In this document: in pieces, positions 54,727 to 61,340 of the stretch
How the letters are laid out: each line of letters starts with the position of its first letter
Numbering within the stretch: the first letter of the stretch is position 1
NCBI GenBank assembly: GCA_903845045.1
Contig: CAIMWA010000340.1
Coordinates: forward strand, 1,880-65,879
DNA length: 64,000 bases
Source: an uncultured delta proteobacterium
GTDB lineage: Bacteria; Myxococcota_A; Polyangia; Polyangiales; Ga0077539
Direction: 5' to 3'
Notes under the pieces: model-generated
The model's input: the letters and a program-made list of their open reading frames with translations, nothing else
What the model was told of the DNA's origin: nothing
Databases searched by the model: none
Made by a program: the position numbers and the translations under genes

Positions 54727-54921
54727 ATGTCGAACATCCAAGGCGTCAACGGTCAGAGCTCGGTCAACATCATCCGCGAGGCAGCGCCCCCGCCGCCGCC
54801 GGCCCCCAAGGCCGCGGCCACGAGCCAGCCCTCGAACCCGCTCGAAGGCCTCCAGGGCCTGGTGAACCAGATCTCCTCGTCGGTGCACGCGAGCGCGATC
54901 CCCGCTCACCAGAACTGGTAG
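54727..54921 (+). CDS. Small 64-aa protein, candidate scaffold/precursor peptide (C-terminal ...AIPAHQNW)
   Basis: MSNIQGVNGQSSVNIIREAAPPPPPAPKAAATSQPSNPLEGLQGLVNQISSSVHASAIPAHQNW*. It has only 1 Arg and is rich in N/Q/S/I, which is opposite to GC-driven noise ORFs. Most codons end in G/C. It has no Cys and no signal peptide. The stop lies 13 nt before the next gene's GTG. Confidence 0.6.
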   Translation: MSNIQGVNGQSSVNIIREAAPPPPPAPKAAATSQPSNPLEGLQGLVNQISSSVHASAIPAHQNW

Positions 54922-54934
54922 CGCGCGTCGGTCC

Positions 54935-55627
54935 GTGCGCCCATTCGGCGTCGCCCGCTACGCAGAGCACCGCACGCGGCTCGTCGACGGCGACGGTCGC
55001 GTCTTCGCGGGGCACCTCGACGAGTCCGCGGGCGGCGTCCCGCGCGCCGTCGTCGTCATCCACGACTTCTACGGGCTGACGCAGCCCGTTCGCACCGCGG
55101 CCACGCGCCTCGCCGCCGACGGCTTCGTCGTCTTCGCGCCGGACCTCTACCGCGGGCGCGTGGCCACGAGCCCCGCCGACGCCGGCGCCCTCGCATCGCA
55201 GCTCGCATGGGACCAGGTGGCGTTGGAGCTCGGCCTCGTCGTCGCGGCGCTTCGACGGCGGAGCGCGGGCATGAAGGTGGCGACGCTCGGCTTCGCCATG
55301 GGCGGCGCGGCATCGCTCGTGGCGGCGGCGGCCCTGCCCGACCTCGCGGCGGCGGTGACCTACTACGGCGTCCCGCAGGACGTCGTGCTCCGCAACCGGC
55401 GCGTGCGCGTGCTCGGCCACTTCGGCGCGCGCGACGTGAAGGTGACGCCTCCACGCGTCGACGCCCTCGCCGCGATGTTCGCGACGCACGGCATCGACGG
55501 CCGGCTGCACCGCTACGACGCCGCAGGAAACTTCGCGAACCCGCTGCTCCCCGAGGTCTTCGACGCCGCCGCCGCCGACACGGCGTGGCAGCGGACGCTC
55601 GCGTTCCTCCACGAGACGCTCGGCTGA
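54935..55627 (+). CDS. Dienelactone-hydrolase-fold protein with substituted catalytic Cys and His
   Basis: Aligns by eye along its whole length with Pseudomonas DLH (ClcD): AVVVIHDFYGLT, FAPDLYRG, VATLGFAMGGAASL (vs VGLVGYCLGGALAF), VLGHFGARDVKV (vs ALFHMGGQDHFV), RYDAAGNFAN (vs WYEEAGHSFA). Confidence 0.85.
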   Translation: MRPFGVARYAEHRTRLVDGDGRVFAGHLDESAGGVPRAVVVIHDFYGLTQPVRTAATRLAADGFVVFAPDLYRGRVATSPADAGALASQLAWDQVALELGLVVAALRRRSAGMKVATLGFAMGGAASLVAAAALPDLAAAVTYYGVPQDVVLRNRRVRVLGHFGARDVKVTPPRVDALAAMFATHGIDGRLHRYDAAGNFANPLLPEVFDAAAADTAWQRTLAFLHETLG

Positions 55628-59647: not shown

Positions 59648-60465
59648 ACGTCGGGCCCCTTCCCCGCGACGCCCTCGGCATCGGACTGCGCACGGCGCAC
59701 TACCCGTACCTCTTCGAGCACTGGCCCGAGGTCGGGTACTTCGAGGTCATCAGCGAGAACTTCCTGGGCTCGGCGGCGCCGCCGCGAGCGCGCCTCGACG
59801 CGGTCCGAGCGCGGTACCCCGTGGTGCTCCACGGCGTGGGCCTCAACCTCTTCGGGCCCGATGCCCTCGACGAGGACTACCTCGACGCGCTGTGCCGCCT
59901 CGCCGACCACGTCGACGCGCCCTTCGTCACCGACCACCTCTGCTGGACCTCGGCGCACGGCGTGTCGCACCACGACCTTCTCCCGGTGCCGTACGTGCCC
60001 GAGCTCGTGGAGCTCGCGGCGGAGCGCGCGCACCACGTGCAGCGCCGCCTCGGACGCCCCTTCGGCCTCGAGAACCTCTCGAGCTACGTCGGCTTCGCGC
60101 GCTCCACGATGACCGAGTGGGACTTCTACACGACCATCGTTCGCGAGGCCGGGTGCTGGTTCATGCTCGACGTGAACAACGTCTACGTGTCGAGCCGCAA
60201 CCACGGCTTCGACGCGTCCACGTACCTGCGCGCCGTGGACTTCTCGCGGGTGCTCCAGGTGCACCTCGCCGGCCACACGCGCGAGCCCGACGGCACCCTC
60301 GTCGACACCCACGACCACCCGGTCTGCGACGACGTCTGGGCGCTCTACGCCGAAGCGTGGCGCCTCGGCGGACCGTTCCCCACGCTCCTCGAGTGGGACG
60401 AGCGCATCCCGCCGATGCCCGACGTGCTGGCGGAGATCGCCAAGGCCGCCGCGGTGCGCGCGTGA
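59644..60465 (+). CDS. DUF692/UPF0276 family protein (multinuclear non-heme iron oxidase, MbnB/TglH/BufB-like)
   Basis: GTGA overlap with the upstream stop. Motifs: GIGLRTAHY, YFEVISENF, YPVVLHGVGLNL, FVTDHLCW, LLPVPY, GLENLSSYV, EWDFY, FMLDVNNVYVSSRNHGFD, VHLAGH, LVDTHDHPVCDDVW, PTLLEWDERIP. Confidence 0.92.
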   Translation: MNVGPLPRDALGIGLRTAHYPYLFEHWPEVGYFEVISENFLGSAAPPRARLDAVRARYPVVLHGVGLNLFGPDALDEDYLDALCRLADHVDAPFVTDHLCWTSAHGVSHHDLLPVPYVPELVELAAERAHHVQRRLGRPFGLENLSSYVGFARSTMTEWDFYTTIVREAGCWFMLDVNNVYVSSRNHGFDASTYLRAVDFSRVLQVHLAGHTREPDGTLVDTHDHPVCDDVWALYAEAWRLGGPFPTLLEWDERIPPMPDVLAEIAKAAAVRA

Positions 60466-61340
60466 GCCCTCGCCCGGCACCGCCCTGGCTCGGCGAGCTC
60501 CAGGCGCGCTTCGGCGCGGTGCTCCGCACGCCCCTCGACCGCAGCACCGGAACGCTCCGGGCTTCCATCGACGCGTTCCCGCCCGACGCCATCGACGACG
60601 CCGTCGACGGACCCCACGGCGCCGCCCCGCAGCGCCTCGCGGTTTACCATCGCCAGTATTGGTTCCGGCTCTTCGGCGTGATGCAGTCGGCGTTTCCGCT
60701 CACCGCGCGCCTCTTCGGACACTGGCACTTCAACGGCGTCGTCACCGGGTACGTCCTCGCTCACGCTCCGCGGAGCTGGGACATCGACCGCGTGCCCGAT
60801 GGCTTCGCGCCGTACCTTCGATCGGTGGCCCTCGCCGAGACCCAGCGCGAGGCGTTGCTGGAGGCTGCGGACCTCGATGCGACGTGGCGCGCGCTCTTTC
60901 GCGCCCCGACGGTGGCGCCGTACCACCCGGGGGCCGACGACGCCGCGCGGCTCCTCGAGGCGCGCCTCGTCCCGTCGCCGGCGACCGCCGTGGTGGTGCT
61001 GCGCTGGCCGTGGCTCGAGCTCAAGCGGGCCCTCGCGAGCGCACCCGGCGAGTCCATCGTCGCCGTCCCCGCGCTGCTCGCCGAGCCCCGCGCGTGGGCG
61101 CTGCTGCGCGAGCCTGGAGGCATCCGGCAGCTCCTGCTCGAGCCGCGCGAAGCCCAGCTGCTCCTAGCGTTGGGGCGGGTCACCGTGGGGGCGGCCCTCG
61201 CCGAGGTCGAGGCAGCGTGCCCGCCCGAGGAGCGCCAAGCTCTGCCGTCCCGCGCGCGTCAGTGGCTGGCGCGCAGCGTCGAGCGCGGCATGTGGTCCGG
61301 CCTGGCCGACGCCGGCGCTCAGGGAACGACGCAGCTGTAG
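60462..61340 (+). CDS. DUF2063 family protein (partner of DUF692; BufC/HvfC-like)
   Basis: GTGA overlap with the DUF692 stop. Motifs: LQARFGAVLRTPL and QRLAVYHRQYWFRLFGVMQSAFPLTARLFGHWHFNGVVTGYVLAHAP. Confidence 0.85.
   Translation: MSPRPAPPWLGELQARFGAVLRTPLDRSTGTLRASIDAFPPDAIDDAVDGPHGAAPQRLAVYHRQYWFRLFGVMQSAFPLTARLFGHWHFNGVVTGYVLAHAPRSWDIDRVPDGFAPYLRSVALAETQREALLEAADLDATWRALFRAPTVAPYHPGADDAARLLEARLVPSPATAVVVLRWPWLELKRALASAPGESIVAVPALLAEPRAWALLREPGGIRQLLLEPREAQLLLALGRVTVGAALAEVEAACPPEERQALPSRARQWLARSVERGMWSGLADAGAQGTTQL

Follow-up and report, generated by a model that had tools for sequence, protein, structure and literature searches.

This locus raises the question of whether six tightly packed genes on one strand belong to one biosynthetic pathway. 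It lies in a 64,000-nucleotide stretch (the window, to which all positions refer) of contig CAIMWA010000340.1, from an uncultured delta proteobacterium of the Polyangiales. Based on the letters of positions 54727-61340, a preliminary description had proposed that a small open reading frame (ORF), a catalytically substituted dienelactone hydrolase (DLH) fold, a tetratricopeptide-repeat (TPR)-like protein, a putative peptide aminoacyl-tRNA ligase (PEARL), a DUF692 multinuclear non-heme iron oxidase (MNIO) and a DUF2063 protein act together on a peptide scaffold. Our comparison with other loci makes it probable that two independent modules of the RiPP type (peptides made on ribosomes and modified after translation) were joined by an insertion, namely a mobile four-gene minimal pearlin cassette (module A, ORF1-4) and a resident Buf2-type bufferin locus (module B). 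The comparisons establish the family memberships of the proteins, their patterns of conservation and the existence of two separate evolutionary units. The features are as follows.

54727-54921, plus strand: ORF1, 64-amino-acid (aa) scaffold (carrier) peptide; no Pfam or NCBIfam family; GC content at third codon positions (GC3) 0.92
54935-55627, plus strand: ORF2, 230-aa dienelactone-hydrolase fold; Pfam DLH 1.4e-32
55652-57499, plus strand: ORF3, 615-aa TPR flavoenzyme assigned to the BhaC1/AmmC1 family by BLASTP and family motifs; no significant Pfam or NCBIfam family
57506-59647, plus strand: ORF4, 713-aa PEARL assigned to the AmmB3/Amm11-position clade; Pfam Lant_dehydr_N 1.5e-19
59644-60465, plus strand: ORF5, 273-aa BufB-type MNIO/DUF692 protein; Pfam MbnB_TglH_ChrH 1e-95
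60462-61340, plus strand: ORF6, 292-aa DUF2063 protein, the MNIO partner (BufC/HvfC-type, 'PME type 1'); Pfam DUF2063 3.8e-16
61319-62089, minus strand: BufA2-like precursor candidate of about 251-256 aa, convergent with ORF6; from translation, alignment and the BufA2 hidden Markov model (HMM)
54601-54726: AT-rich intergenic patch directly 5' of ORF1, candidate promoter/5' untranslated region; from GC content

Checking of the sequence confirmed the six ORFs at these coordinates, with gaps of 13, 24 and 6 nt, and the GTGA overlaps of ORF4 with ORF5 and of ORF5 with ORF6, in each of which the GTG start lies four bases before the end of the TGA stop. Spurious long ORFs are frequent on both strands of the window (~73% GC); the GC3 of the six ORFs, 0.89-0.96, is the pattern expected of real genes.

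Distribution of the cassette and of the MNIO pair

Loci of ORF4 relatives were collected and compared with all six window proteins by tblastn. There were 123 detectable relatives of ORF4, and the nearest non-self ones, 48-55% identical, belong to metagenomes of soil and peat or to Myxococcota metagenome-assembled genomes (MAGs). The order small ORF, DLH gene, gene for a protein of ~620-650 aa and PEARL gene was found in L006, L008, L012, L056 and L081; the L006-type cassette is also present in L007, L013, L014 and L083, the L008-type in L009, L015 and L130, and partial copies in L023 and L082. In total, about six independent metagenome or MAG loci carry the cassette with its order kept and its genes intact, at only 44-51% identity. 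With the window proteins as tblastn queries, neither the MNIO nor the DUF2063 protein had a match in L006, L008, L012, L056, L081, L023 or L082. The MNIO pair stands beside the cassette only in the window's own copies (L001-L003). ORF1-4 are therefore a conserved cassette and an evolutionary unit separate from ORF5-6. Conservation of the six-gene neighborhood had been proposed as a check on the single pathway, and the outcome named beforehand as speaking against it is the one we observed, since L006, L008 and L081 extend at least 2.9 kb past the PEARL gene and have unrelated genes there and no MNIO.

Contigs of P0121 in ENA ERZ1426842 and ERZ1426836, whose MNIO is 96% identical to ORF5, show the same site without the cassette. 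Their gene order is a 563-aa protein (PSI), a VTT_dom protein of 188 aa, an MNIO of 280 aa, an HvfC_N protein of 292 aa and a convergent gene of 260 aa, with 51 nt between the VTT and the MNIO gene. In the window and in L001 the order is a 563-aa protein (PSI), a VTT_dom protein of 180 aa, ORF1-4, an MNIO of 273 aa, an HvfC_N protein of 292 aa and a convergent gene of 256 aa; the MNIO is thus 7 residues longer in the P0121 relative (280 vs 273 aa). Because this nearest relative has the same flanking genes without ORF1-4, gene order points to the insertion of a ~5.1-kb cassette between the DedA/VTT gene and bufB. Two genes upstream of the locus, encoding a ~1220-aa MASE3/PAS/GGDEF signaling protein (48427-52086, plus strand) and the 563-aa protein with plexin (PSI) repeats (52171-53862, plus strand), also lie upstream in the cassette-less relative and are therefore resident genome context.

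The junction itself is consistent with an insertion. Homologs of ORF4 align only to about residue 692, and the last ~20 codons of ORF4 (59582-59647, plus strand; ..EVPEDPGTARSVAPRCGSVAP) have no counterpart in any homolog and are predicted to be disordered. This nonconserved tail is the part that overlaps the start of bufB, and it probably derives from the former spacer upstream of that gene. Around 54300-59900, a search for flanking repeats or insertion scars gave only GC-rich chance matches. ORF5 is 75-96% identical to many homologs, in comparison to 55% for the best non-self match of ORF4, and from these levels of identity ORF4 and ORF5 had different evolutionary histories. With the cassette and the MNIO pair separate in other loci, and the same flanks present in a relative that lacks the cassette, the proposal of a single pathway from six genes did not hold.

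The cassette proteins and their predicted chemistry

The 64-aa ORF had been put forward as a scaffold peptide, and it proved to be real and conserved in the cassette loci. A homologous small ORF lies directly 5' of the DLH gene in every complete cassette (L006, L008, L012, L056 and L081). All homologs begin with MS.., contain a helix-like ..LQ.LQ.L..QI.. segment and end in ...AIPAHQ[SN]W before the stop codon, so that ORF1, encoded as ...SAIPAHQNW, and the five orthologs share a C-terminal Trp. ORF1 has no Cys and no signal peptide. Its Ser and Thr positions vary among the orthologs, and the conserved part is the Trp end. The conservation of ...AIPAHQ[SN]W marks the encoded C-terminal Trp as the likely substrate. 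Scaffolds of loci similar to amm (ammosamide) and bha (B. halodurans) have the form ...DD.EF.L.E.E..IAPLA(LA), in contrast to the cassette peptides, which read ...LQ.L..QI.....AIPAHQ[SN]W and are not acidic. A Kineosporiaceae MAG (L119:7643-7855, plus strand) encodes a classical acidic AmmA-type precursor ending in ...IAPLALAWT, with the Trp encoded and one extra residue, which looks intermediate between appended-Trp and encoded-Trp scaffolds.

The TPR-like ORF3 had been described as matching no known pathway, and here our results differ. The sequences of BhaC1, AmmC1 and the M. fulvus homolog were transcribed from the supporting-information alignment of PMC9850906 and, being machine-read, are slightly noisy. 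With BLASTP, ORF3 matched M. fulvus GEN09191 at 3e-58 (35% over 585 aa), AmmC1 at 2e-21 and BhaC1 at 8e-17. ORF3 has the family motifs AP.QRRL.RESEQ, WL.NL and HLK.N..SN.SVL and the extreme C-terminal ...KL.RPF.LV.V. In loci from actinomycetes, Firmicutes and Rhizobium, homologs of ORF3 lie directly 3' of classical precursors of the acidic AmmA/BhaA type (...IAPLALA), and AmmC1 matches the same positions as these homologs at 48-56% identity. When ORF3 and ORF4 were searched by sequence against PDB chains, no match was found at E up to 1. The BLASTP matches and motifs place ORF3 in the described BhaC1/AmmC1 family of C-terminal-Trp trihydroxylases. The chemistry of AmmC1 and BhaC1 is trihydroxylation of a C-terminal Trp (PMC9850906, PMC11117183, PMC12424672), and by analogy ORF3 is predicted to be a trihydroxylase of the Trp indole. 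Given this membership, the relevant known pathway is of the ammosamide/bha type and not of the 3-thiaglutamate (tgl) type.

ORF4 had been read as a PEARL-like protein with a LanB N-terminal domain and without an elimination domain, and both Pfam and structural comparison agree. Profile scans of the six products matched Lant_dehydr_N without Lant_dehydr_C, the DUF692 family and DUF2063, as had been expected. Lant_dehydr_C/SpaB_C had no Pfam match in the six products and none among the Pfam-labeled L001 genes around the cassette, the rest of the 64-kb window not having been scanned. A family profile of ORF4 matched TbtB among PDB sequences (2.3e-9). The AlphaFold2 model of ORF4 had a mean predicted local distance difference test (pLDDT) score of 86.6, with residues 698-713 disordered, and Foldseek matched it to MibB (2e-23) and TbtB (5e-23) and then to GodF, NisB and MadB (E about 2e-23 to 3e-17; TMq 0.62-0.68 for MibB, TbtB and NisB), followed by weak ATP-grasp fold matches. 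Since the model covers only ~48% of full-length LanBs, about half of such a dehydratase, ORF4 has no elimination domain.

A neighbor-joining (NJ) tree was built from 53 PEARLs of amm/bha-like and cassette loci. ORF4 and the other cassette PEARLs nest with the PEARLs that follow an Amm10-like gene, with the Amm8- and Amm9-position clades separate. The best match of ORF4 in amm-like loci is always the PEARL after a 490-545-aa gene, which fits the published description of Amm10. The LanB-like genes of amm are Amm8, 9, 11 and 18, of which Amm9 is AmmB2 (PMC8210675); from the position of the best match we infer that Amm11 is AmmB3. Tree and gene position assign ORF4 to the PEARLs of the AmmB3-position clade. 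AmmB3 and BhaB5 put Gly from Gly-tRNA onto the oxidized Trp quinone (PMC11117183, PMC12424672). In all 53 PEARLs, D432 and the motif E685-x-R687, which lies 28 residues from the C-terminal end, are unchanged. The published ATP-site residues are E801, R803 and E542 in TglB and E813, R815 and D558 in BhaB, and we take E685-x-R687 of ORF4 to correspond to their E-x-R, the two being matched by position only.

The claim that the DLH-like protein is catalytically 'dead' was borne out by alignment to PDB dienelactone hydrolases. ORF2 shares the whole alpha/beta-hydrolase DLH fold near full length with ClcD and its relatives (PDB 1DIN, 4ZV9 and 9BLD), including the acidic position of the triad. It reads GFAMGG and G-N where these align gfCxGG and G-H, so that the nucleophile Cys is replaced by Ala and the His by Asn, and the Glu of HE..G is replaced by Asp; the Cys(Ser)-His-Asp triad of dienelactone hydrolase is therefore not present. 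The seven cassette orthologs all read G[FA]AMGG, and in each of them Asn replaces the His. We examined the nucleophile position in the 150 nearest representatives drawn from 1.8 billion proteins clustered at 50% identity: the residue is Cys in 111, Ser in 14, Gly in 8 and Ala in 2, and both Ala cases belong to the cassette clade of ORF2. The substitutions are thus conserved within the cassette clade and rare among the nearest representatives of the family, which argues that ORF2 is a conserved pseudo-hydrolase and not a decaying gene. Lacking nucleophile and base, ORF2 is unlikely to carry out classical hydrolysis.

Based on analogy with the characterized pathways, ORF3 would bind the conserved C-terminal ~25 residues of ORF1 and trihydroxylate the Trp indole, which would then oxidize to an o-hydroxy-p-quinone. 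ORF4, with ATP and an aminoacyl-tRNA (Gly-tRNA by analogy with AmmB3 and BhaB5), would add an amino acid to the quinone, and loss of the carbon skeleton from the adduct would leave a peptide-borne aminoquinone. ORF2 probably has a non-hydrolytic accessory role; speculatively, it might bind or stabilize the quinone or adduct, break down the adduct or serve in self-protection, and it could stand in for the absent glycine oxidase by processing the adduct. As the cassette has no release protease, its product may stay peptide-bound, or alternatively host enzymes might release it. A more ambitious version, which we advance tentatively and hold to be somewhat doubtful, is a self-contained cassette in which the encoded Trp at the C terminus becomes an amino- or hydroxy-quinone borne on the peptide; the product could be an electrophilic or redox peptide or a cofactor-like tag, with no released alkaloid, and the triad-less DLH would have a new non-hydrolytic catalytic role such as processing of the aminoacyl-quinone adduct in place of glycine oxidase.

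An amino-acid-derived product on the C terminus of ORF1 had been suggested, and of this the scaffold peptide and the PEARL-like nature of ORF4 stand. The suggested C-terminal extension is not the likeliest chemistry, because the scaffold already ends in Trp. Ligation by ORF4 at that terminus would place the added mass after the Trp carboxylate and not on the indole. PEARLs canonically carry out such a ligation, ORF4 has the invariant C-terminal E-x-R matched by position to ATP-site residues, and the specificity and regiochemistry of PEARLs are known to be unpredictable (PMC11117183, PMC12424672). However, ORF4 clusters with the PEARLs at the Amm11/AmmB3 position and not with those of the Amm8, Amm9 or other clades, and a lone PEARL with a C1 protein and a pre-encoded Trp fits the step after C1 in both characterized pathways. 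We therefore regard C-terminal ligation as unlikely, although it fares best among the alternatives to addition on the quinone.

The cassette resembles the pyrroloiminoquinone pearlins (amm, bha and lymphostin, lym) in having a ribosomal scaffold with a C-terminal Trp beside a C1-family gene and a PEARL gene. ORF3 would take the place of AmmC1/BhaC1 as the C1-family TPR flavoenzyme, and ORF4 that of the AmmB3/BhaB5-position clade. Pro at -5 from the Trp is also common to both (P-A-H-Q-N-W in the cassette, P-L-A-L-A-W in the others). The Trp of the cassette is encoded rather than appended, and a Trp- or Ala-adding PEARL is thus not needed; the cassette has one PEARL in contrast to four to seven. 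The acidic (I/V)APLALA scaffold with its recognition end is replaced by the non-acidic AIPAHQ[SN]W. The cassette is also without an Amm10-like gene, glycine oxidase (Amm14/BhaG), quinone reductase, TldD/E protease, halogenase and methyltransferase, and its substituted DLH-fold gene is not listed in the cited amm and bha papers. In a literature search, neither a description of the cassette nor a paper connecting PEARLs to a dienelactone-hydrolase-like gene was found.

The possibility that the cassette makes no product and is what is left of a larger amm/bha-like cluster in decay has in its favor the lost DLH triad and the genes missing from the window. With Myxococcus and L010 queries, the glycine oxidase (DAO), the Amm10-like protein, the FMN reductase and a 187-aa neighbor had no tblastn match in the window, which has one PEARL and no second, and TldD/E was not among the neighboring genes of the cassette. 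A remnant is nevertheless improbable, and we rejected it: about six loci with only 44-51% identity keep all four genes intact and in an unchanged order, conservation extends to the peptide termini, the Ala and Asn substitutions and the PEARL invariants, and the GC3 of ORF1-4 is 0.89-0.94. This pattern of conservation indicates purifying selection on a functional unit.

Three related loci differ in layout. L017:1595-7953 (JGI Ga0070717_10007371) has an intermediate arrangement of a DLH-like gene with GAAMGG, in which the nucleophile is also lost, a C1 gene, an Amm10-like 500-aa gene and a PEARL gene, and the pseudo-DLH is therefore not confined to the four-gene form; the AIPAHQxW peptide was not found upstream on this short contig. 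L010:1789-22325 (ENA ERZ27256360 k141_753376), which is Myxococcota-like, encodes a C1 homolog, three PEARLs, an Amm10-like protein, an FMN reductase, an MbtH protein, nonribosomal peptide synthetase (NRPS) modules, a polyketide synthase (PKS) and an ATP-binding cassette (ABC) exporter, and may be a pearlin/NRPS-PKS hybrid. L004:2770-16935 (Myxococcus fulvus CP144335) represents the locus type of Myxococcus, Corallococcus and Archangium and contains a gene for a 1068-aa Ser/Thr kinase, an Amm10-like gene with a PEARL on each side, a gene of the DAO family (glycine-oxidase-like) and a divergent C1 gene; a motif scan found no precursor peptide in the L004-type locus.

The probable bufferin module and the weighing of alternatives

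The assignment of ORF5 to DUF692 and of ORF6 to DUF2063 was confirmed by Pfam, with the E-values listed above. ORF5 narrowly passes the NCBIfam equivalog model MNIO_BufB (NF050167; 313.8 bits vs a cut-off of 310), and ORF6 matches NCBIfam HvfC weakly (35.7 bits vs a cut-off of 142). Homologs of ORF5 number in the hundreds at 72-96% identity and, where named, are from Polyangiales or Polyangiaceae. Module B recurs at 75-85% identity in many Polyangia beside unrelated upstream genes. L155-L158 and L160 have an MNIO gene, then a DUF2063 gene and then a convergent gene of 170-260 aa that overlaps or abuts the DUF2063 3' end, and their upstream neighbors are unrelated (polA, ribH/nusB, ERG4-like and GDSL-like), with no PEARL. 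In these loci and in the P0121 contig the DUF2063 gene always follows the MNIO gene, and in the P0121 contig the convergent gene also overlaps the DUF2063 3' end. Ending the locus at 61340, as the preliminary description did, thus cuts off a functionally linked gene at 61319-62089 (minus strand) that had escaped notice.

The convergent protein starts with a signal-like ..ALLTAALGGLLCFA..C segment that has an invariant Cys and is lipoprotein-like (..LLCFAPG|C), continues through a variable Asp/Ala/Pro-rich linker and ends in a C-terminal domain of ~60 aa with six invariant Cys, ..MC...GG..E.HPHCGG.N.C.G.S.D....H.C...N.C.G..CV; for the window gene the pattern is given as ..HPHCGG.N.C.GFS.D...H.C..LN.C.G..CV. 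Alignment indicates that the true start is probably the ATG at 62086 or 62074. A profile of the 6-Cys domain found 87 unannotated relatives. Pfam gave nothing significant for the convergent protein, and a PDB search with an AlphaFold2 model of its C-terminal 6-Cys region (pLDDT 73) gave no significant fold match. NCBIfam BufA2 was the sole consistent family; it matched 5 of 5 members (best E-value 0.0041) and 29 of 30 (best E-value 5.2e-6), with every score below the 60-bit cut-off. Published Buf2 precursors have 51-367 aa and six conserved Cys, and ~16% carry lipoprotein signals (PMC12452194); the features of the convergent gene fit these traits, and its product is a candidate BufA2-like bufferin precursor. 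At L159:3036-5312 (JGI Ga0495314_0000204), genes for CcmH and SCO1/SenC-YHS (copper chaperone) immediately precede a lone 6-Cys BufA2-like member, and no MNIO was found among the genes called within 5 kb on either side; these neighbors fit a copper link of the 6-Cys family.

Comparison with Buf2 of C. vibrioides (CCNA_02999-03001: BufA2, BufB2 and BufC2) shows that module B likewise has a BufB-type MNIO with the DUF2063 partner directly downstream and no DoxX gene, and that its precursor candidate likewise has a Sec/lipoprotein signal-like start and a six-Cys domain of ~60 residues. It differs in that the precursor gene is downstream and convergent, with a long Asp/Ala/Pro-rich linker and a weak BufA2 match (at most about 5e-6), and no sigma or anti-sigma genes were seen near module B. 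These likenesses identify ORF5-6 with 61319-62089 as a putative Buf2-type bufferin module, a new member of a known family, whose precursor subfamily is unannotated, convergent and linker-bearing. By analogy, ORF5 and ORF6 would turn Cys residues of the exported 6-Cys lipoprotein-like precursor into thiooxazole-type copper ligands, and the product would be a periplasmic or membrane-anchored copper-binding bufferin.

A single six-gene pathway, in which the PEARL extends or modifies ORF1 and the MNIO/DUF2063 pair oxidizes that residue as in tgl (TglA, TglB and TglHI), can draw on the tight same-strand packing, the GTGA overlap of ORF4 and ORF5 with no terminator-like site between them, and the adjacency of PEARL-family and MNIO genes on one strand that the window shares with tgl. 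MNIOs elsewhere modify non-Cys C-terminal residues (PMC12452194), and distant LanB-like genes adjoin MNIO genes in L055, L058, L062, L063, L071, L072 and L077. The occurrence of a PEARL with a DUF692 protein had been taken as the signature of tgl; however, ORF5 is of the BufB type and ORF6 is a DUF2063 'type 1' partner, not TglH and TglI (PME type 2), and the linkage is not conserved. DUF2063 'type 1' partners go with signal-peptide precursors, in contrast to type 2 (TglI-type) partners, which go with pearlins (PMC12452194). Neither Cys nor a signal peptide is found in ORF1, and ORF4 is by its clade not of the Cys-adding type. At least six loci keep the MNIO pair together with a convergent Cys-rich precursor of its own and have no PEARL, the cassette has no MNIO wherever downstream sequence exists, and the nearest relative has no cassette at the same site. 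Together with the different histories of ORF4 and ORF5, this leaves the PEARL-MNIO adjacency as a consequence of insertion, and we rejected the single pathway as very improbable. Least credible of all, and likewise rejected, is that ORF4 is a split LanB that glutamylates ORF1 Ser/Thr from glutamyl-tRNA for dehydration, as TbtB does: its nearest solved relatives by sequence and fold are TbtB and MibB, it shares the glutamylation-domain fold with the split TbtB and GodF and the full-length NisB, MibB and MadB, and ORF1 has several Ser/Thr, but no elimination domain or SpaB_C partner was found in the six products or in the L001 genes around the cassette, ORF4 keeps the C-terminal E-x-R and nests inside the PEARL clades of amm/bha-type loci, and its conserved partner is a predicted C-terminal-Trp hydroxylase acting on a peptide whose Trp end is conserved and whose Ser/Thr are variable.

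Several points weigh against the reading of two modules joined by insertion. The insertion is read solely from the order of the genes, their lengths and their Pfam labels. BhaC1 and BhaB recognize the motif (I/V)APLALA, which is absent from the non-acidic ORF1 peptides, and recognition must therefore differ from that of BhaC1/BhaB. The amm cluster has a second, uncharacterized TPR protein, AmmC2, and ORF3 was compared with AmmC1, BhaC1 and the M. fulvus protein only. The grounds for the AmmB3 assignment are gene position and an NJ tree that was not bootstrapped, and PEARL amino-acid specificity cannot be read from sequence, AmmB1 using Leu and AmmB4 Arg. Every BufA2 match of the convergent family is below the curated cut-off, and the precursor candidate is convergent and downstream, in contrast to its upstream position in described buf operons, with no DoxX gene. 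Finally, ORF4 and ORF5 overlap by 4 nt with no terminator between them, so that co-transcription and some functional coupling are possible. There may be a shared transcript without a shared substrate, co-regulation then being an accident of the insertion; it is less likely that the fused transcript makes production of the bufferin and the quinone-peptide co-regulated in this lineage.

Sequence context and implications

The AT-rich patch 5' of ORF1 had been described as the only one in the window. It does contain the lowest-GC 100-nt stretch (54601-54740, GC 0.54-0.55), but it is not the sole one, as other low-GC 100-nt stretches lie at 35061, 9681, 16521 and 48021 (GC 0.56-0.58). Its promoter function is inferred from its composition and position, as a candidate; a scan of 54300-62300 gave no sigma-70 promoter. 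The terminator scan of the same region gave a single terminator-like site, at chance level and inside ORF3, and none between ORF4 and ORF5. Far from the locus, a 127-aa ORF at 78-461 (plus strand; GC3 0.95) consists almost wholly of Cys-rich knottin-like repeats (C..C....C......CC), with a weak Pfam Conotoxin_I2 match (2.2e-07, 31 bits), and could be the terminal part of a secreted Cys-repeat protein that is larger and extends beyond the window start.

For the annotation of such loci, the window shows that tight packing and start/stop overlaps are no proof of a shared pathway, and a rule based on the co-occurrence of a PEARL and a DUF692 protein would misclassify this locus. Mining rules that expect upstream precursors and apply current HMM cut-offs will miss the convergent, unannotated precursors of myxobacterial bufBC loci.

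In the cassette we see an undescribed and compact variant of the pearlin pathway of pyrroloiminoquinone type. Its Trp is encoded, its scaffold is not acidic and has a new recognition end, its one PEARL is of the AmmB3 clade, and its conserved DLH fold lacks the triad. The known pyrroloiminoquinone pathways are long, with four to seven PEARLs, oxidases and proteases, and a tRNA-dependent step just for Trp. The ever-present triad-less DLH fold hints at a step or partner unseen in the amm and bha work. If the predicted chemistry is true, the minimal cassette would be the simplest natural system for converting a C-terminal Trp to a quinone and for PEARL action on that quinone, and, because BhaC1 has a recognition sequence other than the …AIPAHQSW of the cassette, the cassette would provide a second, orthogonal C-terminal tag for the enzymatic installation of quinones on proteins.

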